Below, in pieces: positions 32,301 to 54,000 of a stretch of DNA of 64,000 bases; the stretch's first letter is position 1; each line of letters starts with the position of its first letter. Made by a program: the position numbers and the translations under genes. The DNA comes from Candidatus Rariloculaceae bacterium. Its GTDB lineage: Bacteria > Pseudomonadota > Gammaproteobacteria > Steroidobacterales > Rariloculaceae. Where the stretch lies: the NCBI GenBank assembly GCA_965237785.1, contig OZ250159.1, positions 455,989 to 519,988 of the forward strand, read 5' to 3'. The notes under the pieces were generated by a model that was not told the DNA's origin, searched no databases, and saw only the letters and a program-made list of their open reading frames with translations.

Positions 32301-32566
32301 ACATAGGGTGCGACGGCGAAGCCGAGCTCGACGTCGTTCCCGCGGGCGTCGAGGATCCGCGCGCCGCCGGTTGCCAATCCGTTTGCCGCCACGCGCGCCC
32401 GCCGCGCGCCTTCGTCCCCGGCCGTCGCGGTGTAGCTGAACGTCAGGGTATCGGTGCCCGATCCGCCGCTATAGGCGGCCATGCGTGGCGTGCCGCCGAG
32501 CACGATCTTGAGTGTCGGCCCGGCGTCCGGCGCTCCGTCGACGGTCACGGTTTCGGTGAAGCGCAC
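29393..32566 (-). CDS. autotransporter adhesin, C-terminal portion (Calx-beta, linker, autotransporter beta-barrel); no signal peptide of its own
   Basis: Calx-beta block VADARVDEAEENATLDFAVTL...ATADGTATADEDYEPDSGTLTF...VLDDGHDEGEQTLTLRL (~31230-31545). Junction NSDPMPKAWLARFGRT. ~300-aa beta-barrel ending RLQGSVRW. Lies in frame with the upstream ORF, separated by one TAG. Confidence 0.85.
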   Translation of the reverse strand: MRFTETVTVDGAPDAGPTLKIVLGGTPRMAAYSGGSGTDTLTFSYTATAGDEGARRARVAANGLATGGARILDARGNDVELGFAVAPYVTGIAITPDDPGALEWIANETFEVHVTFNEPLAVTITDLIPVIKLTVKGHTALVGYTSGSGSDTLVFAWVALARTLYFSEVAIAANAMASNGVDIVSLASGIAADLRHDATEPTAAPGAGEPSAETVPEAVQEAAPLRVRLVGFPDEHAGTGEIVFTVEFTKEPHADYSYTTLRGSTLNIRRGGQTRLTPEVRRLNPPHNDRWEVRVAPGSEEDVTVSIGPFSLCTDTGAVCTADGEVLANEVSETILGPRGLSVADARVDEAEENATLDFAVTLARASPETVSVGYATADGTATADEDYEPDSGTLTFLVGETSKTVSVAVLDDGHDEGEQTLTLRLSNAAGGNAYLADAEATGTIVNSDPMPKAWLARFGRTASVQTVDAIRERLAGGPRRSADNHFTVGGRRVDQLFDDFRNAARGADAKETGDRAAPDRRLEDESAWERMDRLKAESMRWGTAPGGTGLVGSGLAGGGIGLAGGESAGGTPRMGGPAPTGFSSSGASPSGSNDAGLPSAGLSPAAPPSTGVPSAGLPSAARAGLENLVSAGLSSAGVLPAGLSSAGLLSAARPFADLLSRGRDDWRALLIGSSFDYSRTLADGTETRNGLSSWTAWGRAAEIRFSGADGELSIDGAVATATVGADAQWGRWLAGVAVSHSFGEGGYSHATAAGGDVTSRLTSINPYANFTLNERLSLWGAVGYGVGDLSLQSKRADDAIETGLESTMAAFGGRGVFSRRAGGLKLAVVSDALFTNTVSEAATGLMGAEGASSRVRLMLEGSGSMPLPNGAVLRPTLEAGVRYDGGDAETGAGIEIGGGLAWSAGRLSVELNVRGLLAHEDAEYEEWGFSTALRWQPNPDGRGWAMDVGSSWGATQSGVQGLWSRADASGLAPRGAAMDTAQRFHAQLGYGLEGRKGRALWVPFFATESSAGQQAYRMGLKLTSGANLEAGLELGRRTGTRGMAEDAFRLQGSVRW

Positions 32567-35432: not shown

Positions 35433-38400
35433 TCACCAGCGCACCGAGCCCTGCAGCCGCAACGCTGCCTCGGCCACGCCGCGCGTGCCCGTTCGCCGGC
35501 CGAGCTCGAGCCCCGCCTCGAGGTTCGCGCCCGACGTGAGCTTCACGCCCATCCGCAAGGCCCGTTGCCCGGCGGAAGCTTCCGTGCCGAGGAACGGCAC
35601 CCAGAGCGCGCGGCCCCTGCGTCCCTCAAGGCCGTAGCCGAGCTCGGCGTGCAACCGCCGGGCGGCATCCATCCCTGCGCCCCGGGCGATTCCCGAGGCG
35701 TCCTGGCGGCTCCACAGCGCGTTCACGCCGCTTGCGGTGTCGCCCCAGCTCGAACCCGCGTCCATCGCCCAGCCGCGCCCGTCCTCGTTGGGCTGCCACT
35801 TCACCGATCCGCTGAACCCCCATTCCTCGTACGCGGCGTCCTCGTGCGCGACAAGCCCCCGCACGTTGACCTCGACCGACACCCGCCCGGCCGTGTAGGC
35901 CACTCCGCCGCCGAGCTCCACACCGGCGCCCGTCTCGGCGTCCCCGCCGTCGTAGCGCAGCCCCGCCTCGAGCGTCGGGCGCAGCACCGCGCCGTTCGAA
36001 AGCGCCATGGATCCCGAACCTTCAAGCATCAGCCGCACGCGGCTCGACGCGCCCTCGGCGCCCATCAGACCCGTCGCGGCCTCGGACACCGTGTTCGTGA
36101 AGAGCGCGTCGGACACGACCGCGAGCTCCAACCCGCCCCCGCGGCGGGAAAACACGCCCCGCCCGCCGAACGCCGCCAGAGCGGATTCAAGACCCGTCCC
36201 GATCGCGTCGTCGGCGCGCTCGCTCCGAAGAGCGAGATCGCCCACGCCGTAACCGACCGCGCCCCACAGGCTCAACCGCTCGTTGAGCGTGAAGTTCGCG
36301 TACGGGTTGACGCTCGTCAGACGGCTCGTCAGTTCGCCGCCGGCGCCGGCGCTTGCATGGCTGTAGGCGCCCTCGCCGAAACTGTGCGACACCGCCACGC
36401 CCGCCAGCCACCGGCCCCACCGGGCGTCGGCGCCGACGGTGGCCGTGGCCACCTCGCCGTCGATCGAAAGCTTCCCGTCGGCGCCGCTGAACCGCGTCTC
36501 CGCCGCCCGGCCCCAGGCCGACCAGCTTGCAAGCCCGTTCGCGGTCCCCGCCCCGTCGTCCAGCGTTCGCGAGTAATCGAACGAACTGCCCATGAGCAGC
36601 GCCCGCCAGTCCTCGCGCCCCCTCGACAGCAGATCCGCGAACGGCCGGGCCGTGGACAGCAGTCCGGCGGACGACAGTCCCGCCGGCAGCACGCCCGCGG
36701 ACGACAGCCCGGCGGACACCAGATCTTCGAGTCCCGCGCGTGCTGCCGACGGCAGTCCTGCGGACGCCAGTTCTGCGGACGCCAGTCCTGCGTCGTTCGA
36801 TCCTGAACGCGACGCGCCTGAAGACGACAAGCCCGTGGGCGCCGGTCCGCCCATCCGCGGGGCCCCGCCCGCGGACCCGCCCGCCGCAAGCCCGATGCTG
36901 CCGGGCGTCGCCCACCAGCCCATGGATTCGGCCTTGAGCCGGTCCATGCGCTCCCAGGCCGATTCGTCCTCAAGGCGCCTGTCCGGCGCGGCCCGGTCCG
37001 CGGTCTCCTTCGCATTGCCGCCCCGGGCGGCGCTGCGCAACTCGTTCAACAGTTGATCCACGCGCCGTCCGCCCACCGTGAACTGGTTTTCCTCGGGCCG
37101 GCGCGGCCCGCCGGTGAGCCGCTCGCGGATCGCATCGACCGTCTGAACCGACGAGGTGCGACCGAACCGCGCCAGCCACGCCTTCGGCATGGGGTCGGAG
37201 TTGTTGATGGTGCCCGTCGCCTTGCCGTCGGCGATGGTTGCGCCGGAAGGGTTGGAGAGCGTCATCGTCAGGGTCTCCGCGCCCTCGTCGTGGCTGTCGT
37301 CCAGCACCGCGATGGAGACGATCCTTCGCTGCTGCCCGCGGGCGAAGGTGAGCGTGCCGCTGCGCGAGTGGTAGTCCTGGCCCGCGGTCGCGGGATTCGC
37401 GCCGGCGCCGTCCGCGGTCGCGTAGTCCACCGTGACCGTGGTGCTCGGCGCCCGGTTCAGCGTGACCGCGAAGTCGAGCAGCGTCGCGTCGTTCTCCTTC
37501 TCGTCCACCGACGCGTCCGCCACCGAGAGTGCCGGCGGCGGTGGGCCTTCCTCAACGGCTTCCTCCTCTACGGGGTCATCCTCGGCCGGGTCATCCTCGG
37601 CCGCGTCGTCCTCGGCCGGGTCGTCCTCGGCCGGATCATCCTCAGCCGGGTCATCCTCAACCGGGTCGTCCTCGGCCGCGTCACCCTCGGCCGGCTCCCG
37701 GTCCGTGTCGGCTCCGCTCGCGGAGTCGCCCGGAGCCTCATCCTCGCGGTTCAGGATCGTCCCCGTCGCCCGGTCGTCGCCGATTTGCGCGCCCCTGGCC
37801 TCGTAGAGGTGAAAGTAAAACGTCTCGCCGCTGTCCTTGTCCTCATCGTCCACGATCGGCACCTCGACGATTTTCCGCCACTCGCCGGCGGCAAAGGTCA
37901 GCGTGCCCGTGGTCTCCTCGTAGTCCGCTCTCACCGTCGCCGTGCCGGACGACGTGTAGTACCGCACCGTCACCTCCCCGGCGGCCGCCGGCGACAGCCT
38001 CACCGCGAACCGGATCGCCGGGTTCGTCCCTTCCCGGCCCTCGGCGTCCGCCACCGACAACGCCGGCGTCGTCCCCACCGGGTCCGCCACGATCCGGCTG
38101 AACTCCGCCACGTGGGGCACGGAGTGCCATTTTCCCGCGGCCCGCAGGTTGTCCGATTCTTCGTACGACTTCCAGTAGCTGACCGAGACGGTCTCGCCGT
38201 CCGACGGCCCGTCGTACTCCGTCCCCCCGCGTATCACCGGGTTCAACGTGAGCCGCACGATCCGGCAGGCCTGGCCGTTGGACGTGCAGGCGCTCCCATT
38301 GCGCGCCTGCACGATCTCGGTCAGGTTCACGCTGTTCGCGGCCAGGGTGTCTGGAAGACCGGCCGGCGCCGATTCCGAATAATGCACCCCGAACTGCGGC

Positions 38401-41400
38401 GTCAGTTTGTTGTGGCGCGCAACGCCCGTATCGAGGTCGCGGTCGAAGAAGATCCAGACCTTGTCGCCATGGCGCTCGATGCGCTCGACCTCGGGCGCGC
38501 CCCGGTTCGAACCCTGGCCCGTCCCGCCGACGTTGTACACCGTCGTCCACGGCCCCGGGCCGCGCTCGTTCTCCCAACGCACCCGCACGTCGTAGGCCTG
38601 CCCGGCCGCGACGTCGAAGATGACGTCGCTGTCGCGTCCGGTGCGCTTCTGGCCGCGCCAGCCCTCCCTCTCGCCGGGCGATGCCCACGCCTTGCCGGCG
38701 CGCTGCCACTGGATGCGGTAGTCGACGCCCACCGGGTCCAGGTCGAAGTTCACCCGCAGGTCCGGCTGCGCGTTCCCGTTGTAATCGATCGGTTCCACCG
38801 TGACGTGCCCCGGCGCCTCCGGCGGCCCGGTCACCCCGCGCACCGTGAGGGTCAGGCGCTTCGACAGCCCGTTCGACCCCGCGCACATCGCGCCCGCGCC
38901 GGGACACGGCAGCGGCTGGACCCTCACGGTCACGTCTTCCGTGCCCGTCGGCGTCAGCTCCATCCGAATGCGGTGGTACGCCGTGTCGATGAAGCGCACG
39001 GTGGCGCCGGTCACCCGCAGCGCCCCGTTCGGCCCGAGCCACTGGTCCGGGGCCGGGCCACGCGCGCATACCGTGAATGACGAGAGGCTCTGGTACTGCT
39101 CCCAGGTGAGTGGCTGGCACCGCTCAGTCAGCAACACGTAGTCGCCCGCCCGCCGGAACTGCACCGCGAGCTGGAACGGCTCGCCGAAGTGGATGTCCGG
39201 CAGGGGACCGCCCCACCCGGCCACGTCGTCCGCGCCGCCTCTCACCGCCGTGAAATGGGCGTCGATCGAGCCGAAGGAGCCCTCGTCGTCCGTGACCGTA
39301 ACCTCCACGTCGCCCGCCGTCACCCCGTTGTAGTTCGCGCCCCTCACCCGGTGGCTGACCGTGGCGAGGTCGTCCTCGTCGTCCGCGTCATGGTCCGCCG
39401 ACACCGTCACGTCCTGCGGCTCGGCCCAGTTCATGGCCGTGAAGGTCAGCGCAGCCGATACCCTCACTTCGGCGTTGTCCACCACCCGCGGCGTCACCGT
39501 CACCGGTCCCGTGGGCGGCGCCTTCAATACGACCGTGTAGGTCGCCTCGGCGCCCTCGTCGACCGCCAGCGACGTCGCGCTCAGCGTCACGCCCGCGGCG
39601 GTGGCGGTGGCGCCCGAACCGGGTTCCGACCACTCGCTGTCGGTCTCGCCGTTCAGCGCCCGCACCCGCACCTGGTAGCTGGTGTCCGCGGACAGGCCCG
39701 TGATCGGCGCGCTCGTGCCGGTGACGTTCTGCGGGCCGTCCATGAAGTCGTCGCCGGTGCCCGGGCGGTATTGCAGGTCGTAGCCTGCGATGTCCGGGCC
39801 GCCGTTCAGACCCGGTTTCGTCCAGGTCACCTCCAGGCTCGTGGTCGAGCCCGGCGTCGCGCCCACCGACGGCGCCGCCGGCGTCTCCGGCTGCTCGTCC
39901 GCGTCGGTCACGTTGATCGTCACGGCGATGCTTTCGGCGCCGCCGTTGCCGTCGGAGACCGAAACCGTCACCGCGTAGCTGGACTTCGCCTCGAAATTCA
40001 ACGCCGCCTTGGTCCGGAGCTGCCCGGAGGTCGAGACCATGGCGAAGGCCGCGGCGTCCGTCCCGCCCAGGGTGTAGGTCAGCGTGTCGCCCGTGTCCGT
40101 ATCCGCGGCCGCGACACGATCCCCGATATCGGCGCCCGCCGCCGTGTTCTCGGCCACGCTGCGCGTGGCGCTCGCGCCCTCGGTGAAGGTCGGGGCATTG
40201 TTGGCGGGCGACCCGGTGTTGCCGGTTCCCGACGGGGACCACTCGCTGGGGGTCTCGCCGTTCAGCGCCCGGACCTGCACCTGGTACCTGGTGGCCGCGT
40301 TCAGGCCCGTGATCGGCGCGCTCGTGCCGGTGACGTTCTGCGGGCCGTCCATGAAGTCGCCGCTGGTGCCAGGGCGGTATTGCAGGTCGTAGCCGGCGAT
40401 GGCCGGGCCGCCGTTCAGCCCCGGCGCGGTCCAGCTCACCGTCAGGCTGGCGGTGGTTCCGGCGGTGGCGCTGACGTCCGGCGCGGCGGGCCTCGCCGGC
40501 TGCTCGTCCGCGTCGGTCACGTTGATCGTCACGGCGATGCTGTCGGCGCCGCCGTTGCCGTCGGAGACCGAAACCGTCACCGCGTAGCTGGACTTCGCCT
40601 CGAAATTCAGCGCCGCCTTGGTCCGGAGCTGGCCGGAGGTCGAGACCATGGCGAAGGCCGCGGCGTCCGTCCCGCCCAGGGTGTAGGTCAGCGTGTCGCC
40701 CGTGTCCGTATCCGCGGCCGCGACACGATCCCCGATATCGGCGCCCGCCGCCGTGTTCTCGGCGACGCTGCGCGTGGCGCTCGCGCCCTCGGTGAAGGTC
40801 GGGGCATTGTTGGCGGGGTCAACCGTCCCGCTCAAGGGATAGGCCGCGCTGGTCAGTGCCTCGTCGTTGCCCTCGTTATCCTGGAAGCTGACCCGCACCT
40901 TGATCTTCTTGCCCTCGTCGTCCGCCACCAGCGCGTAGGTGTACAAGTCTGTCCCGATGTTCACCGGGTTCGTCCCGTCCGCATTCACCCGGACCCACTG
41001 CAAGGTGTAGTCGTCCGGGAAGGTGTCCGGCAGCCCGTCGGTGTCGGCGATGTTGTCGATCGCCGCGGTCAGCGTCTCCCCGACCCGCGCCGTGCCGGAT
41101 ATCGCCGGCGCCCCGGTGGCGGGGTTGTTGGCCACGCCAACCGTTGCGGTGCCCGACGGGTATGGCTCGCTGGTCACTTCCTCGTCGGCGCCACCCTTGT
41201 CCTGGAAGCTCACCTCCACCTTGATCTTCTTGCCCACGTCGGCCGCCACCAGCGCGTAGGTGTACAAGTCTGTCCCGATGTTCACCGGGTTCGTATCGTC
41301 CGCATTCACCCGGACCCACTGGAAGGTGTAGTCGTCCGGGAAGGTGTCCGGCAGCATGTCGGTGTCGGCGATGTTGCCGATCGCCGCGGTCAGCGTCTCG

Positions 41401-41675
41401 CCGGCCCGCGCCGTCCCGGATATGGCCGGCGCGCCGGTGGCGAAGTTGTTGTCCACGCCAACCGTCCCGCTCGCGGGATAGGCGGCACTGGTCACTTCCT
41501 CGTCGGCGCCGCCCTTGTCCTGGAAGCTCACCTCCACCTTGATCTTCTTGCCCACGTCGGCCGCCACCAGCGCGTAGGTGTACAAGTCTGTCCCGATGTT
41601 CACCGGGTTCGTATCGTCCGCATTCACCCGGACCCACTGGAAGGTGTAGTCGTCCGGGAAGGTGTCCGGCAGCAT
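35433..41675 (-). CDS. giant adhesin, C-terminal segment (Ig-like repeats, cadherin-Fn3 x2, Calx-beta x2, autotransporter beta-barrel)
   Basis: The apparent ATG 41675 is an internal Met of the repeat (…DTDMLPDTF…). Contains NAPTFTEGASATRSVAENTAAGADIG...DTDTGDTLTYTL (cadherin-like), Fn3 (LTVSWTAPGLNGGPAIAGYDLQYR), two Calx-beta blocks, NSDPMPKAWLARFGRT, and a barrel ending LQGSVRW. Confidence 0.88.
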   Translation of the reverse strand: MLPDTFPDDYTFQWVRVNADDTNPVNIGTDLYTYALVAADVGKKIKVEVSFQDKGGADEEVTSAAYPASGTVGVDNNFATGAPAISGTARAGETLTAAIGNIADTDMLPDTFPDDYTFQWVRVNADDTNPVNIGTDLYTYALVAADVGKKIKVEVSFQDKGGADEEVTSEPYPSGTATVGVANNPATGAPAISGTARVGETLTAAIDNIADTDGLPDTFPDDYTLQWVRVNADGTNPVNIGTDLYTYALVADDEGKKIKVRVSFQDNEGNDEALTSAAYPLSGTVDPANNAPTFTEGASATRSVAENTAAGADIGDRVAAADTDTGDTLTYTLGGTDAAAFAMVSTSGQLRTKAALNFEAKSSYAVTVSVSDGNGGADSIAVTINVTDADEQPARPAAPDVSATAGTTASLTVSWTAPGLNGGPAIAGYDLQYRPGTSGDFMDGPQNVTGTSAPITGLNAATRYQVQVRALNGETPSEWSPSGTGNTGSPANNAPTFTEGASATRSVAENTAAGADIGDRVAAADTDTGDTLTYTLGGTDAAAFAMVSTSGQLRTKAALNFEAKSSYAVTVSVSDGNGGAESIAVTINVTDADEQPETPAAPSVGATPGSTTSLEVTWTKPGLNGGPDIAGYDLQYRPGTGDDFMDGPQNVTGTSAPITGLSADTSYQVRVRALNGETDSEWSEPGSGATATAAGVTLSATSLAVDEGAEATYTVVLKAPPTGPVTVTPRVVDNAEVRVSAALTFTAMNWAEPQDVTVSADHDADDEDDLATVSHRVRGANYNGVTAGDVEVTVTDDEGSFGSIDAHFTAVRGGADDVAGWGGPLPDIHFGEPFQLAVQFRRAGDYVLLTERCQPLTWEQYQSLSSFTVCARGPAPDQWLGPNGALRVTGATVRFIDTAYHRIRMELTPTGTEDVTVRVQPLPCPGAGAMCAGSNGLSKRLTLTVRGVTGPPEAPGHVTVEPIDYNGNAQPDLRVNFDLDPVGVDYRIQWQRAGKAWASPGEREGWRGQKRTGRDSDVIFDVAAGQAYDVRVRWENERGPGPWTTVYNVGGTGQGSNRGAPEVERIERHGDKVWIFFDRDLDTGVARHNKLTPQFGVHYSESAPAGLPDTLAANSVNLTEIVQARNGSACTSNGQACRIVRLTLNPVIRGGTEYDGPSDGETVSVSYWKSYEESDNLRAAGKWHSVPHVAEFSRIVADPVGTTPALSVADAEGREGTNPAIRFAVRLSPAAAGEVTVRYYTSSGTATVRADYEETTGTLTFAAGEWRKIVEVPIVDDEDKDSGETFYFHLYEARGAQIGDDRATGTILNREDEAPGDSASGADTDREPAEGDAAEDDPVEDDPAEDDPAEDDPAEDDAAEDDPAEDDPVEEEAVEEGPPPPALSVADASVDEKENDATLLDFAVTLNRAPSTTVTVDYATADGAGANPATAGQDYHSRSGTLTFARGQQRRIVSIAVLDDSHDEGAETLTMTLSNPSGATIADGKATGTINNSDPMPKAWLARFGRTSSVQTVDAIRERLTGGPRRPEENQFTVGGRRVDQLLNELRSAARGGNAKETADRAAPDRRLEDESAWERMDRLKAESMGWWATPGSIGLAAGGSAGGAPRMGGPAPTGLSSSGASRSGSNDAGLASAELASAGLPSAARAGLEDLVSAGLSSAGVLPAGLSSAGLLSTARPFADLLSRGREDWRALLMGSSFDYSRTLDDGAGTANGLASWSAWGRAAETRFSGADGKLSIDGEVATATVGADARWGRWLAGVAVSHSFGEGAYSHASAGAGGELTSRLTSVNPYANFTLNERLSLWGAVGYGVGDLALRSERADDAIGTGLESALAAFGGRGVFSRRGGGLELAVVSDALFTNTVSEAATGLMGAEGASSRVRLMLEGSGSMALSNGAVLRPTLEAGLRYDGGDAETGAGVELGGGVAYTAGRVSVEVNVRGLVAHEDAAYEEWGFSGSVKWQPNEDGRGWAMDAGSSWGDTASGVNALWSRQDASGIARGAGMDAARRLHAELGYGLEGRRGRALWVPFLGTEASAGQRALRMGVKLTSGANLEAGLELGRRTGTRGVAEAALRLQGSVRW
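37566..37695 (-). repeat. 15-nt in-frame tandem repeat encoding an acidic (A/V)EDDP spacer
   Basis: ggccgggtcatcctc / ggccgcgtcgtcctc / ggccgggtcgtcctc / ggccggatcatcctc / agccgggtcatcctc / aaccgggtcgtcctc... It translates as DAAEDDPVEDDPAEDDPAEDDPAEDDAAEDDPAEDDPVEE. Confidence 0.9.
39600..40817 (-). repeat. 609-nt tandem duplication (cadherin-like plus Fn3 pair x2)
   Basis: The sequence gaaaccgtcaccgcgtagctggacttcgcctcgaaattca... at 39961 recurs at 40570 (offset 609). The cadherin halves are near-identical and the Fn3 halves are more diverged. Confidence 0.9.
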
Positions 41676-44600
41676 CGTCGGTGTCGGCGATGTTGCCGAT
41701 CGCCGCGGTCAGCGTCTCGCCGGCCCGCGCCGTCCCGGATATCGCCGGCGCGCCGGTGGCGGGGTTGTTGGCGGCGGCCACCGTTGCGGTGCCCGACGGG
41801 TATGGCTCGCTGGTCACTTCCTCGTCGTTGCCGTCGTCGTCCTGGAAGCTCACCTCCACCTTGATCTTCTTGCCCACGTCGGCCGCGACCAGCGCGTAGG
41901 TGCCGGAGTCTGTCCCGATGTTCACCGGGTTCGTCCCGTCCGCGTCCACCCGGACCCACTGCAAGGTGTAGTCGTCCGGGAAGGTGGCCGGCAGCCCGTC
42001 GGCGTCGGCGATGGTGTCTTTCGCCGCGGTCAGCGTCTCGCCGGCCCGCGCCGTCCCGGATATCGCCGGCGCGCCGGTGGCGGGGTTGTTGGCGGCGGCC
42101 ACCGTTGCGGTGCCCGACGGGTATGGCTCGCTGGTCACTTCCTCGTCGTTGCCGTCGTCGTCCTGGAAGCTGACCTCCACCTTGATCTTCTTGCCCACGT
42201 CGGCCGCGACCAGCGCGTAGGTGCCGGAGTCCGTCCCGATGTTCACCGGGTTCGTCCCGTCCGCGTCCACCCGGACCCACTGCAAGGTGTAGTCGTCCGG
42301 GAAGGTGGCGGGCAGCCCGTCGGCGTCGGCGATGGTGTCTTTCGCCGCGGTCAGCGTCTCGCCGGCCCGCGCCGTCCCGGATATCGCCGGCGCGCCGGTG
42401 GCGGGGTTGTTGGCGGCGGCCACCGTTGCGGTGCCCGACGGGTATGGCTCGCTGGTCACTTCCTCGTCGTTGCCGTCGTCGTCCTGGAAGCTCACCTCCA
42501 CCTTGATCTTCTTGCCCACGTCGGCCGCGACCAGCGCGTAGGTGCCGGAGTCTGTCCCGATGTTCACCGGGTTCGTCCCGTCCGCGTCCACCCGGACCCA
42601 CTGCAAGGTGTAGTCGTCCGGGAAGGTGGCGGGCAGCCCGTCGGCGTCGGCGATGGTGTCTTTCGCCGCGGTCAGCGTCTCGCCGGCCCGCGCCGTCCCG
42701 GATATCGCCGGCGCGCCGGTGGCGGGGTTGTTGGCGACGCCAACCGTTGCGGTGCCCGACGGGTATGGCTCGCTGGTCACTTCCTCGTCGTTGCCGTCGT
42801 CGTCCTGGAAGCTGACCCGCACCTTGATCTTCTTGCCCTCGTCCGCCGCGACCAGCATGTAGGTGCTTGAGTCCGTCCCGATGTCGACCGAGTTCGACTC
42901 GCCGTCCGCGTCCACCCGGACCCACTGCAAGGTGTAGTCGTCCGGGAAGGTGTCCGGCAGCCCGTCGGCGTCGGCGATGGTGTCTTTCGCCGCGGTCAGC
43001 GTCTCGCCGGCCCGCGCCGTCCCGGATATCGCCGGCGCGCCGGTGGCGGGGTTGTTGGCGGCGGCCACCGTTGCGGTGCCCGACGGGTATGGCTCGCTGG
43101 TCACTTCCTCGTCGTTGCCGTCGTCGTCCTGGAAGCTCACCTCCACCTTGATCTTCTTGCCCACGTCGGCCGCGACCAGCGCGTAGGTGCCGGAGTCCGT
43201 CCCGATGTTCACCGGGTTCGTCCCGTCCGCGTCCACCCGGACCCACTGCAAGGTGTAGTCGTCCGGGAAGGTGGCGGGCAGCCCGTCGGCGTCGGCGATG
43301 GTGTCTTTCGCCGCGGTCAGCGTCTCGCCGGCCCGCGCCGTCCCGGATATCGCCGGCGCGCCGGTGGCGGGGTTGTTGGCGGCGGCCACCGTTGCGGTGC
43401 CCGACGGGTATGGCTCGCTGGTCACTTCCTCGTCGTTGCCGTCGTCGTCCTGGAAGCTCACCTCCACCTTGATCTTCTTGCCCACGTCGGCCGCGACCAG
43501 CGCGTAGGTGCCGGAGTCCGTCCCGATGTCGACCGAGTTCGACTCGCCGTCCGCGTCCACCCGGACCCACTGCAAGGTGTAGTCGTCCGGGAAGGTGGCC
43601 GGCAGCCCGTCGGCGTCGGCGATGGTGTCTTTCGCCGCGGTCAGCGTCTCCCCGACCCGCGCCGTGCCGGAAATCGCCGGGACGCCGGTGGCGGGGTTGT
43701 TGGCGACGCCAACCGTTGCGGTGCCCGACGGGTATGGCTCGCTGGTCACTTCCTCGTCGTTGCCGTCGTCGTCCTGGAAGCTGACCTCCACCTTGATCTT
43801 CTTGCCCACGTCGGCCGCCACCAGCGCGTAGGTGTACAAGTCTGTCCCGATGTTCACCGGGTTCGTCCCGTCCGCGTCCACCCGGACCCACTGCAAGGTG
43901 TAGTCGTCCGGGAAGGTGGCCGGCAGCCCGTCGGCGTCGGCGATGGTGTCTTTCGCCGCGGTCAGCGTCTCCCCGACCCGCGCCGTGCCGGAAATCGCCG
44001 GGACGCCGGTGGCGGGGTTGTTGGCGACGCCAACCGTTGCGGTGCCCGACGGGTATGGCTCGCTGGTCACTTCCTCGTCGTTGCCGTCGTCGTCCTGGAA
44101 GCTGACCTCCACCTTGATCTTCTTGCCCACGTCGGCCGCCACCAGCGCGTAGGTGTACAAGTCTGTCCCGATGTTCACCGGGTTCGTCCCGTCCGCGTCC
44201 ACCCGGACCCACTGCAAGGTGTAGTCGTCCGGGAAGGTGGCGGGCAGCCCGTCGGTGTCCTCGATGCTGCCCCGCGCCGCGGTCAGCGTCTCCCCGACCC
44301 GCGCCGTGCCGGAAATCGCCGGGACGCCGGTGGCGGGGTTGTTGGCGGCGGCCACGGCGAGGGAAACCTTCACCCTGTCGCCTTCGTTCCAGGAGAGCCC
44401 GGCGGCGTCGAATGCGAACACAAGCTGGCTGCCGAGGCCGGCGGTGAAGGTGAAGGTTTCGGAGCCGAGGGTGAGGGCGAGCTCCTCGCTGCCCAGCAGC
44501 CCGTCGGCAGGGGTGGTGCCGGAGATGCGGCGTATCTGGAGACTGAGCTGCCCGCCCGTGCCACTGTTGTAGGCGACGTAGGGGACGCCGACGACGGCGG

Positions 44601-47600
44601 TGCCGCGGGTAAAGCTGTCGGGGGAGAGCGAGCCGATGTCGACGGGAGGTAAATCGCTGTAGCCGTAAAGGGTGCTGAGGTTCCCGACGGTGAGGGTGGC
44701 GCACCACAGGACCTCGCAGGCCTCCGCCACTGTTTCCATCCCCGAGGGATAGGCGGCGCCGGTCAGTGCCTCGTCGTTGCCCTCGTTATCCTGGAAGCTG
44801 ACCCGCACCTTGATCTTCTTGCCCTCGTCCGCCGCGACCAGCATGTAGGTGCTTGAGTCCGTCCCGATGTCGACCGAGTTCGACTCGCCGTCCGCGTCCA
44901 CCCGGACCCACTGCAAGGTGTAGTCGTCCGGGAAGGTGGCCGGCAGCCCGTCGGCGTCGGCGATGTTGTCTTTCGCCGCGGTCAGCGTCTCGCCGGCCCG
45001 CGCCGTCCCGGATATCGCCGGCGCGCCGGTGGCGGGGTTGTTGGCGACGCCAACCGTTGCGGTGCCCGACGGGTATGGCTCGCTGGTCACTTCCTCGTCG
45101 TTGCCGTCGTCGTCCTGGAAGCTGACCCGCACCTTGATCTTCTTGCCCTCGTCCGCCGCGACCAGCATGTAGGTGCTTGAGTCCGTCCCGATGTCGACCG
45201 AGTTCGACTCGCCGTCCGCGTCCACCCGGACCCACTGCAAGGTGTAGTCGTCCGGGAAGGTGTCCGGCAGCCCGTCGGCGTCGGCGATGGTGTCTTTCGC
45301 CGCGGTCAGCGTCTCGCCGGCCCGCGCCGTCCCGGATATCGCCGGCGCGCCGGTGGCGGGGTTGTTGGCGGCGGCCACCGTTGCGGTGCCCGACGGGTAT
45401 GGCTCGCTGGTCACTTCCTCGTCGTTGCCGTCGTCGTCCTGGAAGCTCACCTCCACCTTGATCTTCTTGCCCACGTCGGCCGCGACCAGCGCGTAGGTGC
45501 CGGAGTCCGTCCCGATGTTCACCGGGTTCGTCCCGTCCGCGTCCACCCGGACCCACTGCAAGGTGTAGTCGTCCGGGAAGGTGGCCGGCAGCCCGTCGGC
45601 GTCGGCGATGGTGTCTTTCGCCGCGGTCAGCGTCTCGCCGGCCCGCGCCGTCCCGGATATCGCCGGCGCGCCGGTGGCGGGGTTGTTGGCGGCGGCCACC
45701 GTTGCGGTGCCCGACGGGTATGGCTCGCTGGTCACTTCCTCGTCGTTGCCGTCGTCGTCCTGGAAGCTCACCTCCACCTTGATCTTCTTGCCCACGTCGG
45801 CCGCGACCAGCGCGTAGGTGCCGGAGTCCGTCCCGATGTTCACCGGGTTCGACTCGCCGTCCGCGTCCACCCGGACCCACTGCAAGGTGTAGTCGTCCGG
45901 GAAGGTGGCCGGCAGCCCGTCGGCGTCGGCGATGGTGTCTTTCGCCGCGGTCAGCGTCTCCCCGGCCCGCGCCGTGCCGGATATCGCCGGCGCGCCGGTG
46001 GCGGGGTTGTTGGCGGCGCCAACCGTTGCGGTGCCCGACGGGTATGGCTCGCTGGTCACTTCCTCGTCGTTGCCGTCGTCGTCCTGGAAGCTGACCTCCA
46101 CCTTGATCTTCTTGCCCACGTCCGCCGCGACCAGCGCGTAGGTGCTTGAGTCCGTCCCGATGTCGACCGAGTTCGACTCGCCGTCCGCGTCCACCCGGAC
46201 CCACTGCAAGGTGTAGTCGTCCGGGAAGGTGGCGGGCAGCCCGTCGGCGTCGGCGATGGTGTCTTTCGCCGCGGTCAGCGTCTCGCCGGCCCGCGCCGTG
46301 CCGGATATCGCCGGCGCGCCGGTGGCGGGGTTGTTGGCGGCGCCAACCGTTGCGGTGCCCGACGGGTATGGCTCGCTGGTCACTTCCTCGTCGTTGCCGT
46401 CGTCGTCCTGGAAGCTGACCTCCACCTTGATCTTCTTGCCCACGTCGGCCGCCACCAGCGCGTAGGTGTACAAGTCTGTCCCGATGTTCACCGGGTTCGT
46501 CCCGTCCGCGTCCACCCGGACCCACTGCAAGGTGTAGTCGTCCGGGAAGGTGGCCGGCAGCCCGTCGGCGTCGGCGATGGTGTCTTTCGCCGCGGTCAGC
46601 GTCTCGCCGGCCCGCGCCGTGCCGGATATCGCCGGCGCGCCGGTGGCGGGGTTGTTGGCGGCGGCCACGGCGAGGGAAACCTTCACCCTGTCGCCTTCGT
46701 TCCAGGAGAGCCCGGCGGCGTCGAATGCGAACACAAGCTGGCTGCCGAGGCCGGCGGTGAAGGTGAAGGTTTCGGAGCCGAGGGTGAGGGCGAGCTCCTC
46801 GCTGCCCAGCAGCCCGTCGGCAGGGGTGGTGCCGGAGATGCGGCGTATCTGGAGACTGAGCTGCCCGCCCGTGCCACTGTTGTAGGCGACGTAGGGGACG
46901 CCGACGACGGCGGTGCCGCGGGTGAAGCTGTCGGGGGAGAGCGAGCCGATGTCGACGGGAGGTAAATCGCTGTAGCCGTAGAGGGTGCTGAGGTTCCCGA
47001 CGGTGAGGGTGGCGCACCACAGGACCTCGCAGGCCTCCGCCACTGTTTCCATCCCCGAGGGATAGGCGGCGCCGGTCAGTGCCTCGTCGTTGCCCTCGTT
47101 ATCCTGGAAGCTGACCCGCACCTTGATCTTCTTGCCCTCGTCCGCCGCGACCAGCATGTAGGTGCTTGAGTCCGTCCCGATGTCGACCGAGTTCGACTCG
47201 CCGTCCGCGTCCACCCGGACCCACTGCAAGGTGTAGTCGTCCGGGAAGGTGGCGGGCAGCCCGTCGGTGTCGGCGATGGTGTCTTTCGCCGCGGTCAGCG
47301 TCTCCCCGGCCCGCGCCGTCCCGGATATCGCCGGCGCGCCGGTGGCGGGGTTGTTGGCGGCGGCCACCGTTGCGGTGCCCGACGGGTATGGCTCGCTGGT
47401 CACTTCCTCGTCGTTGCCGTCGTCGTCCTGGAAGCTGACCTCCACCTTGATCTTCTTGCCCACGTCCGCCGCGACCAGCGCGTAGGTGCTTGAGTCCGTC
47501 CCGATGTCGACCGGGTTCGACTCGCCGTCCGCGTCCACCCGGACCCACTGCAAGGTGTAGTCGTCCGGGAAGGTGGCCGGCAGCCCGTCGGCGTCGGCGA

Positions 47601-50600
47601 TGGTGTCTTTCGCCGCGGTCAGCGTCTCGCCGGCCCGCGCCGTCCCGGATATCGCCGGCGCGCCGGTGGCGGGGTTGTTGGCGGCGGCCACCGTTGCGGT
47701 GCCCGACGGGTATGGCTCGCTGGTCACTTCCTCGTCGTTGCCGTCGTCGTCCTGGAAGCTCACCTCCACCTTGATCTTCTTGCCCACGTCGGCCGCGACC
47801 AGCGCGTAGGTGCCGGAGTCCGTCCCGATGTTCACCGGGTTCGTCCCGTCCGCGTCCACCCGGACCCACTGCAAGGTGTAGTCGTCCGGGAAGGTGGCCG
47901 GCAGCCCGTCGGCGTCGGCGATGGTGTCTTTCGCCGCGGTCAGCGTCTCGCCGCGGTCAGCGTCTCGGGAAGGTGGCCCGTGTCTTTCCCGCGCCGTCCC
48001 CGGCCCGCGCCGTGCCGGATATCGCCGGCGCGCCGGTGGCGGGGTTGTTGGCGGCGCCAACCGTTGCGGTGCCCGACGGGTATGGCTCGCTGGTCACTTC
48101 CTCGTCGTTGCCGTCGTCGTCCTGGAAGCTGACCTCCACCTTGATCTTCTTGCCCACGTCCGCCGCGACCAGCGCGTAGGTGCTTGAGTCCGTCCCGATG
48201 TCGACCGAGTTCGACTCGCCGTCCGCGTCCACCCGGACCCACTGCAAGGTGTAGTCGTCCGGGAAGGTGGCGGGCAGCCCGTCGGTGTCGGCGATGTTGT
48301 CTTTCGCCGCGGTCAGCGTCTCGCCGGCCCGCGCCGTCCCGGATATCGCCGGCGCGCCGGTGGCGGGGTTGTTGGCGGCGCCAACCGTTGCGGTGCCCGA
48401 CGGGTATGGCTCGCTGGTCACTTCCTCGTCGTTGCCGTCGTCGTCCTGGAAGCTCACCTCCACCTTGATCTTCTTGCCCACGTCGGCCGCGACCAGCGCG
48501 TAGGTGCCGGAGTCTGTCCCGATGTTCACCGGGTTCGTCCCGTCCGCGTCCACCCGGACCCACTGCAAGGTGTAGTCGTCCGGGAAGGTGGCCGGCAGCC
48601 CGTCGGCGTCGGCGATGGTGTCTTTCGCCGCGGTCAGCGTCTCGCCGGCCCGCGCCGTCCCGGATATCGCCGGCGCGCCGGTGGCGGGGTTGTTGGCGGC
48701 GGCCACGGCGAGGGAAACCTTCACCCTGTCGCCTTCGTTCCAGGAGAGCCCGGCGGCGTCGAATGCGAACACAAGCTGGCTGCCGAGGCCGGCGGTGAAG
48801 GTGAAGGTTTCGGAGCCGAGGGTGAGGGCGAGCTCCTCGCTGCCCAGCAGCCCGTCGGCAGGGGTGGTGCCGGAGATGCGGCGTATCTGGAGACTGAGCT
48901 GCCCGCCCGTGCCACTGTTGTAGGCGACGTAGGGGACGCCGACGACGGCGGTGCCGCGGGTGAAGCTGTCGGGGGAGAGCGAGCCGATGTCGACGGGAGG
49001 TAAATCGCTGTAGCCGTAGAGGGTGCTGAGGTTCCCGACGGTGAGGGTGGCGCACCACAGGACCTCGCAGGCCTCCGCCACTGTTTCCATCCCCGAGGGA
49101 TAGGCGGCGCCGGTCAGTGCCTCGTCGTTGCCCTCGTTATCCTGGAAGCTGACCCGCACCTTGATCTTCTTGCCCTCGTCCGCCGCGACCAGCATGTAGG
49201 TGCTTGAGTCCGTCCCGATGTCGACCGAGTTCGACTCGCCGTCCGCGTCCACCCGGACCCACTGCAAGGTGTAGTCGTCCGGGAAGGTGGCGGGCAGCCC
49301 GTCGGTGTCGGCGATGGTGTCTTTCGCCGCGGTCAGCGTCTCCCCGACCCGCGCCGTCCCGGATATCGCCGGCGCGCCGGTGGCAGGGTTGTTGGCGGCG
49401 GCCACCGTTGCGGTGCCCGACGGGTATGGCTCGCTGGTCACTTCCTCGTCGTTGCCGTCGTCGTCCTGGAAGCTGATCTCCACCTTGATCTTCTTGCCCA
49501 CGTCCGCCGCGACCAGCGCGTAGGTGCTTGAGTCCGTCCCGATGTCGACCGCGTTCGACTCGCCGTCCGCGTCCACCCGGCTCCACTGGAAGGTGTAGTC
49601 GTCCGGGAAGGTGTCCGGCAGCTCGTCGATGTCGGCGATGTTGCCGACCGCCGCGGTCAGCGTCTCGCCGGCCCGCGCCGTCCCGGATATCGCCGGCGCG
49701 CCGGTGGCGGGGTTGTTGGCGACGCCAACCGTTGCGGTGCCCGACGGGTATGGCTCGCTGGTCACTTCCTCGTCGTTGCCGTCGTCGTCCTGGAAGCTCA
49801 CCTCCACCTTGATCTTCTTGCCCACGTCGGCCGCCACCAGCGCGTAGGTGCCGGAGTCTGTCCCGATGTTCACCGGGTTCGTCCCGTCCGCGTCCACCCG
49901 GACCCACTGCAAGGTGTAGTCGTCCGGGAAGGTGGCCGGCAGCCCGTCGGCGTCGGCGATGTTGTCTTTCGCCGCGGTCAGCGTCTCCCCGACCCGCGCC
50001 GTCCCGGATATCGCCGGCGCGCCGGTGGCGGGGCGGTTGGCAATGGCGAGGGAGACCTTCACCGTGTCGCCTTCGTTCCAGGAGAGCCCGGCGGCGTCGA
50101 ATGCGAACACAAGCTGGCTGCCGAGGCCGGCAGTGAAGGTGAAGGTTTCGGAGCCGAGGGTGAGGGCGAGCTCCTCGCTGCCCAGCAGCCCGTCGGCAGG
50201 GGTGGTGCCGGAGATACGGCGTATCTGGAGACTGAGCTGCCCGCCCGTGCCACTGTTGTAGGCGACGTAGGGGACGCCGACGACGGCGGTGCCGCGGGTG
50301 AAGCTGTCGGGGGAGAGCGAGCCGATGTCGACGGGAGGTAAATCGCTGTAGCCGTAGAGGGTGCTGAGGTTTCCGACGGTGAGGGTGGCGCACCACAGGA
50401 CCTCGCAGGCCTCCGCCACTGTTTCCATCCCCGAGGGATAGGCGGCGCCGGTCACTTCCTCGTCGTTGCCCTCGTTATCCTGGAAGCTGACCCGCACCTT
50501 GATCTTCTTGCCCACGTCCGCCGCGACCAGCGTGTAGGTGCTTGAGTCCGTCCCGATGTCGACCGAGTTCGACTCGCCGTCCGCGTCCACCCGGCTCCAC

Positions 50601-51060
50601 TGGAAGGTGTAGTCGTCCGGGAAGTTGGCGGGCAGCCCGTCGGTGTCGGCGATGTTGCCCTGCCCGGCGGTCAGATCTTCGCGCACCTGCGCCGTGCCCG
50701 TGATCGCCGGGGCGCCCGTGGCGGCGTTGTTGGCAGCGGCGACCACGCCCGTGGCCGCGCTGGTGAGCGACTCGGCGTTGCCGTCGTCGTCCTGGAAGCT
50801 GGCCCGGACCTTGATCGTCTTGCCCTCGTCAGCGTCCACCAGCGTGTAGGTGCTTGACGTAGCGCCCGATATATCAGCAGGGTTCGAGCTGCCGTCCGCA
50901 TCGAGCCGGATCCACTGGTAGGTGTAGCTCACGTTGGTAAGCCCGTCCATGTCCATGATGCCGGTGGTGGCCGCGGTGAGTTCCTGGCCTACCTGCGCGG
51001 TGCCGGTGATGGTGGGGGCGCCGGTGGCGTTGGCGCTGTCCACCTCGGTGACGGTTACCG
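40820..51060 (-). repeat. coding tandem array: ~27 contiguous copies of a 321/324-nt unit interspersed with four 378-nt modules
   Basis: The periodic antisense ORFs in the ORF track start 321 or 324 nt apart (41984, 42305, 42626, 42950, 43271, 43595, 43916, 44237; 44936...46550; 47249...48588; 49287...49932). The steps are 699 nt across each inserted module. Many units are near-identical at nucleotide level. Confidence 0.95.
41677..47952 (-). CDS. giant adhesin, central repeat segment (in-frame part of ORF-track ORF 40876..48060)
   Basis: About 18 copies of the ~107/108-aa repeat ANNPATGAPAISGTARAGETLTAAKDTIADADGLPATFPDDYTLQWVRVDADG...GKKIKVEVSFQDDDGNDEEVTSEPYPSGTATV, plus 2 copies of a 126-aa Cys-containing module. 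Both ends of the ORF-track ORF are out-of-frame read-through. Confidence 0.85.
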
Positions 51061-54000
51061 TGGGGTACGGCGCGCCGCCGTAGGTGCCGATTATCGCCAC
51101 GTGGGCGATGGTCGTCGTGCCGTTCTCGGTGTCCGTGTCCGCAGCGGCGTTCACCGTCACGGTCTGGGCCGTGCTCCAGTCGGATGTCGTGAAGGTCAGC
51201 CCGGCCTCCGAGTCATGCGTGATGTCCTCGTCGCCGCCGTCGGCTAGTGCCACCCGCAGTATCACCGTCGCGGTTGGCGCCGTGGCGAACACCACGGTGT
51301 AGCTCGCGCTGCCGCCCTCCGGAACCTTCAGCTCCGTCGGCGTGATCAGCACCCCAGGCGTCTGGTTGATCACCGCCTGGTCCGTCAGCGCCGCCGCGGC
51401 GTTGCCATCCTCGTCCCGCACCGGATTCGACGCCGGCACCCTGTAGCTCACCGTGACGCTCTCGCCCGGCCCGGCCGCCGTCGACAGCATCAGCGTCACC
51501 GCCTGCCCGGCCACGGCCACCGCGCTGCTCGACGCCAGCGCGCGCTCCGCGCCCGCCACCATCACCGTGAACGCCGCCGCGTCCGTCTTCGAGTTCTCGT
51601 CCAACGCCACGTCGTAGGTCAGCGTCAGCACCGCGCCGTTAATCGTCGCGCTCTCAAGCGCCGGCGTCGTGTCCGCCGCGGCAACCGGCGTCGCGGATTG
51701 CTCCGCGCTGGCGACGCCACCGCCCACGTCGTTCACCGCCCGGAGCTGGAAGGTGTGGGCCGTGTCGTTCGGCAAGCCCGTGACGGTGAAGCTGGCTTCG
51801 TTGGCTTCGCCCGGCGCGCTGTCGGCAATCGCCGTCCATGCACCGTAGGCGGCGGTTGTTTTCACCCGGTACTCGTGGCCGGCGATCCCCGACGCGCTCG
51901 GCACGGTCCAGCCCAGGGTCACCGCGCCGTCGCCCGCCGTGGCCGCGAACCCGGCCGGCGCCGCCGGCGCCAGTGCCACCGTCCCGGTGCGCGTGAACAC
52001 GAGCCGCGCGATGCGCTCGCCGGTGAACTTGCCCCTGCCGCGCAGGCTGGCGATGGGCGCCTTCGGGTTCGTGCCGGCGTTGCTCATGTCGAACCCGGTC
52101 CCGTCCTCCGTTCCCGCGTCCCACGGATACAGCTCCACCGTGCGCGACGACAGCCAGTCGCCGGACGAGTCCAGCAGCGACAGCCCGGAGACCCCCACGA
52201 ACCAGTCCGGCGTCGGGGCGATCATCGACGTGAGCGTGATGCGCGGGTGGTCGCTGGTGAAGACGACGCCGGTCTCGGTGCGGTTGCCGGCGATGCCGGG
52301 CGCGTCATAGGTGACCGCCGCAAGCGCATCGGGCTTCCCGGCGTTGACCTCGCCCGCCAGGGTAGCCGTGGTCCCTTCCTCGGCCATGGCCTCCACACCG
52401 GCGCTCGCCGTCTCGCCGGCCTCGAGGAACGCGACCTGGTCGTTGTGGATGCCGCCCACGAAGGTCGTGAAGTGGGCGCCGGGCGGCACCCCGCCCGGCG
52501 TGACGCCGCTGTCCCAGTCCCCTTCGATCCGAATGCTGTAGGTGGCCCGCGACGTGCGCGCCACCGCCGGGTCGTCGTCCGGCGGCGTCAGCGAGTCGTC
52601 CCCGGTGTCGCTTTCATCGGTGACGCTGACGGTCACGGCGTGGGTCGCCGAAGCCCCGCCGTCGGACACCTTCACCGTCACCGAGTGGCTGATCTTGGCC
52701 TCGTGGTCGAGGTGGGCCCTGGTTTGTATCCGGCCGGTGTCCGTGATCGCGAAGTTATCGCCGTCATCGCCTTTCAGGGTGTAGGTCAGGGTGTCGCCGG
52801 CGTCCGGGTCGGTGGCCGTGAACGGGTTGCCGATGTTCGTGTCCGGCGCGGTGTTCTCCGCCACGGACAACGTCGCCGGCAGGCCGGTGTCGAACACCGG
52901 GGGAGCGTTCGGCAGGAGCTCCACGGTCACGAACGCCCCGTCGGCCAGGCCCCGGATCGCCGCGGGCGCGGGGGTCCACCGGTAGTTGTTGGCTACCCCA
53001 TCTTCACCGTCTCTATTGCCTCTGGTCGCGCTGCCCGGGGCGAAGAAATGCGACCCCACCCTCAGCGTCACGCGGCCCAGGCCGGCGGCGGGAAAGTCGC
53101 GGTCCAGGGTCAGGTGGAGCGAGCCACTGCCATCGACAAGATCAGTATCCCATCTGAGGCTCTCGACCGTGTAGGGCGCGCCGTCCAGGTCGAAATCCGT
53201 GTCGCTGAGCCCGCCGTAGGGTGTCGAACACCGTCCAGCCGCGGCGTCGCAGTACCCATGGGGCACGTCTTGATCCCCCACCTGTACAGCCCCCACCGTC
53301 AGCGTCGCGCACCAGATGTGTCCCGCGGTGCAGGCCGGGGGCGGCACCGTCGCGGCGCTGGTCCGCGCCTCTGCGTTGCCCTCGCCGTCCGTGAAGCCCA
53401 CCCTGACCCGGAACCGCTTGCCCGCGTCGGCCGCGACCAGCGTGTAGGTGCGGGCGCTCGCCCCGGAAATCTCCACCCGGTTCGACTCGCCGTCCGCGTC
53501 CACCCGGACCCACTGCAAGGTGTAGTCGTCCGGGAAGGTGTCCGGCAGCCCGTCGGCGTCGGCGATGTTGCCGATCGCCGCGGTCAGCGTCTCCCCGACC
53601 CGCGCCGTGCCGGAAATCGTCGGGACGCCGGTGGCGGGGGTGTTGGTGGACATTGCCGGGAGCGTTGTCAGCCGGACGTTGACCGTGTCGCCGTCGGACC
53701 AGGTCAGACCGCTATTGGCCCAGCGTAGGTCCCGGTTGCCCCTGAGCCGGCTCGCATCGTCGAACGCGAACGCGGCGTCGTCCACATGAAGCGTCCAGCC
53801 GGACGGCGGCTCCTTGTCGAATTCAAGGGACAACTCACCATCGCCCAACACGGCGAGATAGATGATGGTGTACCCAGTGCCGTCATATGTGAAACTGCTC
53901 GGGTTGAGCGACCCCACTCTGCCGGAGGAATAGCCCACGGCTCCTGGCGTTGGTGCTCCCGCCTCCATTGTTGCGGAGTGGATTCCCTGGACCGAGAGCG

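Follow-up and report, generated by a model that had tools for sequence, protein, structure and literature searches.

What kind of protein carries 27 consecutive copies of one domain in its middle, and by what process has such an array been formed? The question is raised by a 64,000-nucleotide (nt) stretch of contig OZ250159.1 (positions 455,989 to 519,988, assembly GCA_965237785.1; here, the window, meaning the whole stretch of DNA that was analyzed). It comes from an uncultured gammaproteobacterium that is close to “Candidatus Foliamicus” and probably inhabits a marine sponge. On the minus strand of the window, a giant gene spans positions 35433 to 57682 or 57655, depending on the start codon, and its interior (40809 to 51037) consists of 27 contiguous immunoglobulin (Ig)-like units with four interspersed modules of a second kind, as delimited by motif scan, Tandem Repeats Finder, and identity matrix. 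We consider it likely that this interval encodes the variable-length Ig-like stalk of a giant surface protein anchored in the outer membrane, and that the stalk is remodelled by unequal recombination and conversion.

Organization of the repeat array

A six-frame motif scan places the motif I[ST]GTA[RQ] 29 times on the minus strand, twice in N-terminal positions (54289 and 53617) and 27 times from 51010 to 41102. This count agrees with an earlier reading made from the letters of the window (here, the sequence-only reading), which had put the number of copies at about 29, about 27 of them contiguous and two diverged ones farther N-terminal. When cut at the boundaries NNPATGAPA...TATVAAA, a unit measures 321 nt (107 amino acids) or 324 nt (108 amino acids), and Tandem Repeats Finder independently reported the array at a period of 321/324 nt with scores of up to 6333. 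Both unit types described earlier, the 107-amino-acid type containing DADGTNPVNIG and the 108-amino-acid type containing DADGESNSVDIG, were recovered together with every variant string quoted for them, but they are not the whole set: an additional type of 106 amino acids (318 nt), resembling u27, is represented by only two or three units of the window (units are numbered u1 to u29 from the N terminus, the contiguous array being u3 to u29).

Unit cutting places the four modules, all on the minus strand, after u4 (copy 1, 50039 to 50407), u7 (copy 2, 48695 to 49069), u12 (copy 3, 46657 to 47031), and u18 (copy 4, 44344 to 44718). The steps formed by u7, u12, and u18 with their modules are 699 nt each, as had been stated for the module-bearing steps in general, but u4 and its module together span 693 nt. 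With carrier units of 324 nt, the module itself is 375 nt (369 nt after u4) and not 378 nt as first given; the module-to-module distances of 1338, 2038, and 2313 nt were exact. The remaining off-size steps are u3 (306 nt), u27 (319 nt), and u10 (370 nt), the last being 321 nt plus the 49-nt insertion that the sequence-only reading had noticed.

The description of the units as near-identical fits the core of the array, u5 to u26, in which pairwise nucleotide identity is 84 to 100%, but not its edges: u3 is about 63% identical to the other units, u4 is 78 to 91% identical to the core, and u27 to u29 are 81 to 92% identical to it. More-diverged edge units are the usual pattern for such arrays.

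Predicted fold of the unit and of the interspersed module

The unit matches two Pfam families, IG_AIR9 (PF23197) and SCAB-Ig (PF16709). Over the whole protein the scores are 118.8 and 122 bits, above the respective gathering cut-offs of 27.5 and 27.6 bits; a lone unit scores 21.6 and 17.5 bits, under threshold. An AlphaFold2 model of u7 with its module, for which the alignment held 25 homologous sequences, has a mean predicted local distance difference test (pLDDT) score of 86 and comprises two all-beta domains (residues 1 to 101 and 110 to 232) joined by a low-confidence linker (residues 102 to 109). The modelled unit (residues 1 to 101) is an Ig-like beta-sandwich of seven strands. Its best match in the PDB, obtained by Foldseek with the two-domain model, is 4dix_A (SCAB1 Ig-PH, E = 1.1e-3); FN3/Ig tandems make up the rest of the list, along with weak matches (E about 0.01 to 0.03) to the adhesin extender repeats 6xi3 and 4p99. 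By its predicted fold, the unit belongs to the Ig-like beta-sandwiches of the AIR9-A9/SCAB-Ig type, and the earlier expectation of such a fold, with structure prediction as the check, is borne out by the model, the Pfam profiles, and the 4dix match. The likeness to the AIR9 A9/SCAB-Ig families thus lies in the profile match, the seven-strand model, and the best PDB match. The families, however, were defined on eukaryotic cytoskeleton-associated proteins, whereas the present protein is bacterial and predicted to be extracellular, and the lone unit stays below the gathering threshold (21.6 versus 27.5 bits for PF23197).

The interspersed module (125 amino acids) folds as a second beta-sandwich in the same model and has the consensus W-x-A-T-L-T-V-G ... 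G-Y ... F ... Y-T-V ... W ... G-L-x-W-x-x-G-D-x-V-x-V-x-L. No Pfam match was found in 16 diverse members of its family, and the two-domain model gave no significant PDB fold match for it. A profile search with the module recovered 4,761 representative protein clusters at E <= 1e-3, 2,490 of which reach 1e-10, and the module is often present in several copies per protein, with a maximum of 17 in one protein. To judge from these sequence matches, it constitutes a common, still undescribed domain family, possibly one that contributes separately to the recognition of host or matrix. When JGI metagenome contigs were scanned with the unit and module, no relative was returned.

Mosaic variation and superblocks

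Among u5 to u26, 21 of the 22 DNA sequences are distinct, with 67 of 327 nucleotide columns and 33 of 108 amino acid columns variable. Variation is therefore not confined to a few positions, as had been proposed, although only 18 linked patterns account for the 48 informative biallelic sites. The other half of that proposal, that the variants recombine, is supported by their mosaic distribution. The linked blocks include a 3-nt indel block (ESNSVD/TNPVN), an SG/SS/LY block, an M..EGKKIKVRV block, and a tail block of 19 sites characteristic of the units that bear a module. All four gametes are present in 282 of the 1128 pairs of informative sites, and the Hudson-Kaplan minimum is at least 6 exchanges. 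Incompatibility between neighboring sites is 0.169, against a mean of 0.25 in 2000 permutations of site order, none of which gave a value as low; it is thus indicated that recombination or conversion between units, and not random or recurrent mutation, distributed the variants. Random placement of the variant sites, the outcome that the sequence-only reading had set against its own proposal, was not observed; by the four-gamete and permutation tests they form shared mosaics.

Similarity between units does not decay with distance along the array (Mantel r = -0.04, p = 0.65). A simple distance-decay model was accordingly rejected; similarity tracks superblocks of five to six units. Divergence between units dips at lags 5, 6, and 11, and it does so in the absence of distance decay because the array holds three superblocks, each opening with a unit and a module: B2 (u7 with its module and u8 to u11; 47356 to 49393), B3 (u12 with its module and u13 to u17; 45043 to 47355), and B4 (u18 with its module and u19 to u23; 42733 to 45042), all on the minus strand. 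B2 is 98.9% identical to B3 when the 49-nt patch is excluded, B3 is 98.0% identical to B4 with 3 gap columns, and B4 is 96.6% identical to B2. The longest exact repeats in the array are 687 nt, connecting module copies 2 and 3, and 619 nt, connecting u16-u17 with u22-u23.

Could the variant patches have been kept by selection for binding or antigenic specificities, such that the units are ligand-binding cassettes and not neutral spacers? The amino acid is altered in 33 of the 49 variable codon columns, and the patches cluster in segments (KDTIADADG, ESNSVD/TNPVN, and SG/SS/LY) that are possibly loops. However, pN/pS among units is about 0.45, below 1, many units share an identical protein sequence, and the variation amounts to a few reshuffled haplotype blocks (18 patterns for 48 informative sites). 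We regard such selected diversification as quite unlikely. Diversifying selection among the units is not supported by the pN/pS value, which indicates, at the sequence level, purifying to relaxed constraint.

Alleles in related assemblies

Homologous loci were compared in four further assemblies. The comparison contigs have low coverage (3x to 7x) and private indels of their own. L021 (ERZ26167216, 4.55x) is 99.6% identical to window positions 58242 to 47997 and contains u1 to u9, including two modules, at 99.4 to 100% identity per unit; its unit order departs from that of the window exactly at the site of the 49-nt patch, and the contig ends inside the array. L022 (ERZ25766727, 3x) covers the entire locus. 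Its flanks are 99.0% and 96.7% identical to those of the window, and its gene is about 5 kb shorter, with 22 units and 3 conserved modules versus 29 and 4 in the window. It lacks the cadherin/Spondin_N/FN3/SWM segment (window about 53352 to 51000) and carries a run of eight units of the 106-amino-acid type (KGGADEEV), of which seven measure 318 nt and the eighth 321 nt. At L022 positions 14039 to 14362 there is a chimeric junction unit, the head of which is nearest to u2, while the last ~180 nt are 100% identical to u7 and u18, with a module next to it. From its sequence, this unit looks like the product expected of unequal exchange.

A sister species (L002) has an intact ORF (open reading frame) of at least 4667 amino acids with about seven units, four of them as 699-nt unit-module repeats. 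The same gene contains, at about 4700 to 9000 of that contig, seven near-identical copies of a 208-amino-acid cadherin-FN3 pair, which lie at the position corresponding to the two pairs of the window but are unlike them in sequence. In L023 (18x), the homologue has 2,463 amino acids and a single unit with a module. At L023 6110 to 7669, a reverse transcriptase of the group II intron type (RVT_1 + GIIM) and a separate 642-amino-acid F5/8-type-C/FN3 ORF were noted, with the single-unit homologue just downstream; disruption or replacement may have affected the N-terminal part of the gene. Among species-representative genomes, the closest is a metagenome-assembled genome (MAG) labelled “Candidatus Foliamicus” sp. 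(OZ250178.1), with 88% amino acid identity in the C-terminal flank. The length variation between strains that the sequence-only reading had thought likely is thus seen between assemblies, as 29 units in the window, 22 in L022, about 7 in L002, and 1 in L023.

Units of the 107-amino-acid type are 97 to 100% identical within the window and are shared with L022 at 99% or more, whereas they are at most 90.8% identical to any unit of L002; u1, which is outside the array, is 99.1% identical between the window and L002. The expansion is thus lineage specific and recent, and the comparison of alleles suggests that array structure shifts faster than the flanks diverge. Unequal crossing-over and gene conversion, the process put forward in the sequence-only reading, is supported by the mosaic sites, the superblocks of 96.6 to 98.9% identity, the L022 chimera, and the differences in length. 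As in concerted evolution, the units are more alike within a genome than between species (97 to 100% versus at most 90.8%), but what the term covers here is mostly recent lineage-specific amplification and exchange between unit types, not the homogenization of ancient copies.

Two breaks in the reading frame

Three long minus-strand ORFs tile the region (58069 to 47957, 48060 to 40876, and 41675 to 35433), and the middle one stands in the public annotation (NCBI/ENA) as a separate 2332-amino-acid protein on a contig of 4,388,645 nt. Exact-protein look-ups of the 2080-amino-acid C-terminal ORF, the 921-amino-acid neighbor, and P0242 returned no record. Removal of two lesions (50 nt) yields a single frame from 58069 to 35433 in which the only stop is the terminal one. 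The candidate starts are GTG 57682, which was used by the gene caller on contig L021, and ATG 57655; the repaired gene, one open frame of ~22.2 kb ending at the stop at 35433, has ~7,390 to 7,399 codons, with 7,390 residues counted from the ATG.

The first lesion is a frame-breaking patch of 49 nt in u10 (47954 to 48002), composed of 8- to 18-nt pieces of the unit's first 114 nt in scrambled order (unit coordinates 35 to 46, 70 to 77, 102 to 114, and 53 to 70). It is absent from L021, the one assembly comparable at this site. The second, which the sequence-only reading had not listed beside the insertion, is an extra G in u27 at position 41676 (GACGATGCTG; the other units have GACATGCTG or GACGGGCTG); the related units of L022, again the one assembly comparable, are in frame there. 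The affected codon is GGG or ATG in the other units of the window and encodes E, M, or G among the units of L022, and GATG is what the merging of two unit alleles would yield. Neither lesion sits at a homopolymer. Private 1-nt indels in the comparison contigs (five were seen, three of them within short runs of G or C) indicate that such consensus errors do occur in these assemblies.

Inflation of the copy number by the assembler is the case that the sequence-only reading had named as a refutation. If the length or order of the array were such an artefact, through inflation or mis-joining, the 49-nt patch would mark a faulty join, the extra G would be a consensus error, and the true gene would be shorter or differently ordered. 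The patch is indeed a collage of the unit's own sequence and lies exactly where L021 ceases to be collinear with the window, the extra G falls in a codon that varies between units, and GATG resembles a merged consensus. In sample ERZ26167216, L021 ends in the array and L020 (ctg466411, 7.25x) would end at ~48.9 kb if it were collinear beyond the part examined; that assembler was apparently unable to span the array. Nevertheless, 21 of the 22 core units are unique in DNA sequence, the longest exact repeats (687 and 619 nt) are far below long-read size, the source contig is 4.39 Mb long, L021 repeats u1 to u9 and two modules almost letter for letter (99.4 to 100% per unit), and a long array of the same unit types (22 units) was obtained independently in L022. 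An artefact of this extent therefore appears improbable to us.

The lesions might also be real, in which case the gene would be dead in this strain and the array a relic. Two independent breaks, neither at a homopolymer run, would suit such a pseudogene, as would the public pipeline's call of the middle ORF as a separate protein. Host-associated bacteria commonly lose or vary surface proteins. Against such inactivation stand the lack of a further stop in 22.2 kb, about 4,000 nonrepetitive codons included, the absence of each lesion from the one other assembly comparable at its site, the intact orthologue in the sister species, and the pN/pS of about 0.45 among units, which denotes constraint until recently. 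We hold a genuine pseudogene to be a tentative possibility, and one compatible with the origin proposed here for the array. Consensus or assembly error at the two points is somewhat more likely than real inactivation.

Domain architecture and predicted membrane anchor

The stalk assignment draws on what lies on either side of the array. At the N terminus (57518 to 57655, minus strand), the translation begins with a putative Sec signal peptide, MAGERDGGRRLSG...FFRLAFGALLVIPASA followed by QA, with a charged n-region, a hydrophobic core, and an ASA/AQA site, as judged by eye. Two repeats of ~190 amino acids (…WSLIPSGLSAGDDFRLLIVTS…IYWLNGAKVADDYADLYDG…; window about 55000 to 57200, minus strand) gave no Pfam match and are, from their sequence and position, candidates for the functional heads that would be held away from the cell by the stalk. 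They are followed by u1 and a diverged module copy, which aligns with the module family (53645 to 54316, minus strand), and by u2, a second diverged module, and the domains that Pfam identifies N-terminal of the array (51038 to 53644, minus strand), namely Cadherin-like, Cadherin, Spondin_N, fn3, and SWM_repeat.

A segment of ~100 amino acids just after the FN3 domains, at the start of the C-terminal flank that was compared with OZ250178.1 (…TFTAMNWAEPQDVTVSADHDADDEDD…VTVTDDE), is 34 to 57% identical in MAGs of very different phyla (L003 to L019). Its carriers belong to Nitrospirales, Latescibacteria, Dehalococcoidia, Gemmatimonadota (Longimicrobiales and “Candidatus Palauibacter”), and Vicinamibacterales and include the sponge symbiont AqS3. 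This distribution, seen at the level of sequence identity, hints at domain sharing within one habitat.

Directly C-terminal of the array are two cadherin-FN3 pairs (39606 to 40808), and farther on there are two Calx-beta domains (36900 to 38399), all on the minus strand. Between the latter, a 15-nt tandem repeat of 8 copies (37573 to 37694) encodes an acidic EDDPA/EDDPV tract; the number and mix of such pentapeptides differ between the window and the sister species. The protein ends in a 400-amino-acid domain (35436 to 36635, minus strand; final residues ...SVRW), which in the AlphaFold2 model (pLDDT 78) consists of an alpha-helix (residues 2 to 14) and an outer-membrane beta-barrel of ~19 strand segments over 380 amino acids. 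Foldseek matched the model with outer-membrane barrels of the PDB, including the autotransporter beta-domains of BrkA, NalP, Hbp, and EspP; the BrkA match has E = 1.3e-5, 18% identity, and a TM score of 0.55 on the target. Barrels of TonB-dependent receptors (22 strands) match equally well. In the best 60 of 109 homologues, the barrel domain is at the C terminus or at most ~55 residues from it, mostly exactly terminal.

A search of the PDB with the C-terminal domain by phmmer retrieved no autotransporter, and the identity of a classical autotransporter was rejected at the sequence level, since neither PF03797 nor any PDB autotransporter sequence matches. Because of the missing Pfam Autotransporter match, we call the barrel anchor-like, as in autotransporters, but do not call the protein an autotransporter. 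An RTX adhesin was likewise rejected: Pfam scans of the N- and C-terminal ORFs found no RTX repeats (PF00353), and the C terminus is a predicted beta-barrel.

Weight of the evidence and proposed mechanism

Several observations weigh against a variable stalk on an outer-membrane anchor. (i) Two breaks interrupt the frame in the present assembly, and the allele as written thus cannot make the full protein. (ii) The comparison contigs, at 3x to 7x and with private indels, are such that some of the allele differences could be assembly noise or collapse. (iii) An hmmscan of the last 488 amino acids (E <= 1) gave no match to Autotransporter (PF03797), and the barrel model has ~19 strand segments, not 12. 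(iv) Surface location, rod-like geometry, and adhesive function would follow from domain content and predicted folds. We nonetheless favor the variable, recombining stalk.

Under this model, the stalk would be a chain of Ig-like beta-sandwich domains of 106 to 108 residues, broken at intervals by the 125-residue beta-sandwich module. Because most units are 95 to 100% identical at the DNA level, they could pair out of register in homologous recombination. Unequal exchange would add or remove single units and 2-kb superblocks, and short conversion tracts would carry variant patches between units, giving a mosaic array that changes in length and composition faster than the flanks diverge. By analogy with known systems, the array most likely sets the distance at which the N-terminal domains project from the cell. 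The two lesions would be secondary, either a very recent inactivation of the allele or consensus errors introduced where the sequence is polymorphic or its structure ambiguous.

Comparison with known surface proteins

A close parallel is that of the Periscope Proteins, for which a combination of high DNA identity among repeats, a repeat number that varies from one similar strain to another, and rod-like stalks is proposed, as in SasG/Aap, Rib/alpha C, Sgo_0707, Esp, and CdrA (PMC8201768). The window gene resembles them in its tandem folded domains of very high DNA identity (84 to 100% among u5 to u26), in sharp differences in repeat number between close strains (29 versus 22, the latter from an assembly at 3x), in intragenic homologous recombination as the proposed cause, and, by prediction, in a stalk placed between N-terminal domains and a C-terminal anchor (here a putative barrel, with the signal peptide read from the sequence). 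It differs in that it comes from an uncultured marine Gram-negative organism and not from a cultured pathogen, would be anchored by an outer-membrane beta-barrel instead of LPXTG, repeats an Ig-like domain of the A9/SCAB type, and has an interspersed second domain as well as a 2-kb higher-order repeat. Here, a rod-like geometry and a length-dependent function are putative, by analogy with the known systems.

Giant adhesins of Gram-negative bacteria likewise have extender regions, including MpIBP (about 120 near-identical BIg repeats of 104 amino acids), LapA, and SiiE (PMC7493085). As in these, the present protein has several thousand residues, mostly in a chain of beta-sandwich repeats of about 100 amino acids, with an acidic, probably Ca2+-binding composition and with cadherin and Calx-beta domains alongside; 6xi3 and 4p99 are weak Foldseek matches. 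However, those adhesins are type I-secreted RTX proteins that carry the RTX repeats at the C terminus and a retention module at the N terminus, whereas no RTX repeat was found here and the C terminus is a predicted beta-barrel. With type Va (classical) autotransporters, the protein shares, by prediction, the order of signal peptide, long passenger, C-terminal alpha-helix, and beta-barrel, a terminal aromatic residue, and matches to the beta-domains of BrkA, NalP, Hbp, and EspP at 16 to 18% identity. In contrast to them, it has no PF03797 match, its barrel comprises ~380 residues and ~19 predicted strand segments (versus ~280 residues and 12 strands), and 22-stranded TonB-dependent receptors match that barrel equally well.

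Genomic neighborhood

Upstream of the giant gene (57679 to 63975, minus strand) lies a paralogous gene for a 2,098-amino-acid protein with five cadherin-FN3 pairs, a Calx-beta domain, and, at the C terminus, the same barrel domain as the giant protein. Co-transcription of the two genes is suggested by the overlap of the paralogue's stop with GTG 57682, the start called for the giant gene. P0002 was tested as a copy of this neighboring paralogue and is not one. Since two more large proteins of the Calx-beta/FN3 type are encoded downstream on the same strand (29393 to 32566 and 32573 to 35338), there are at least four genes for large surface proteins in a row. Between 12730 and about 32950, contig L020 and the window differ by a single mismatch; within the gene at 32573 to 35338 the two then diverge and indels appear.

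Two adjacent tyrosine-recombinase (Phage_integrase) genes on the plus strand (25847 to 26638 and 26643 to 27842) are located where the G+C content rises from about 0.59 to about 0.70, and this site may be the boundary of an acquired island that bears the surface-protein genes. No tRNA genes were found in the window. A defense-type cluster (10223 to 17753, plus strand) encodes a large protein resembling DNA methyltransferases, an AAA ATPase weakly similar to PtuA/MAD3, and a full-length restriction endonuclease of the BPTD_3080 family (1022 bits).

Implications

Nothing in these findings lies outside known biology; what is new is an example in an uncultured lineage and an unannotated domain family. 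For annotation, the locus is a caution, as a gene of ~7,400 codons is split into three ORFs by automatic annotation at two lesions that are possibly erroneous. The handling of coding tandem repeats by metagenome assemblers could also be benchmarked on it. The analysis also brings to notice a 125-residue beta-sandwich domain that is common but unannotated.

A wider reading, which we offer as speculation, is that the gene is a rapidly re-tunable scaffold across lineages, each amplifying another cassette: 107-amino-acid A9 units in the window, 106-amino-acid units in L022, the cadherin-FN3 pair in L002, and almost none in L023. Strains coexisting within one host would then differ in stalk length and valency, and the module would be a widespread undescribed family.

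The alleles with 1, about 7, 22, and 29 units, together with the recombinant junction unit, form a natural series in which the rate of stalk change can be set against point divergence. With this locus, an uncultured and probably sponge-associated Gram-negative case is added to the variable-length surface proteins.

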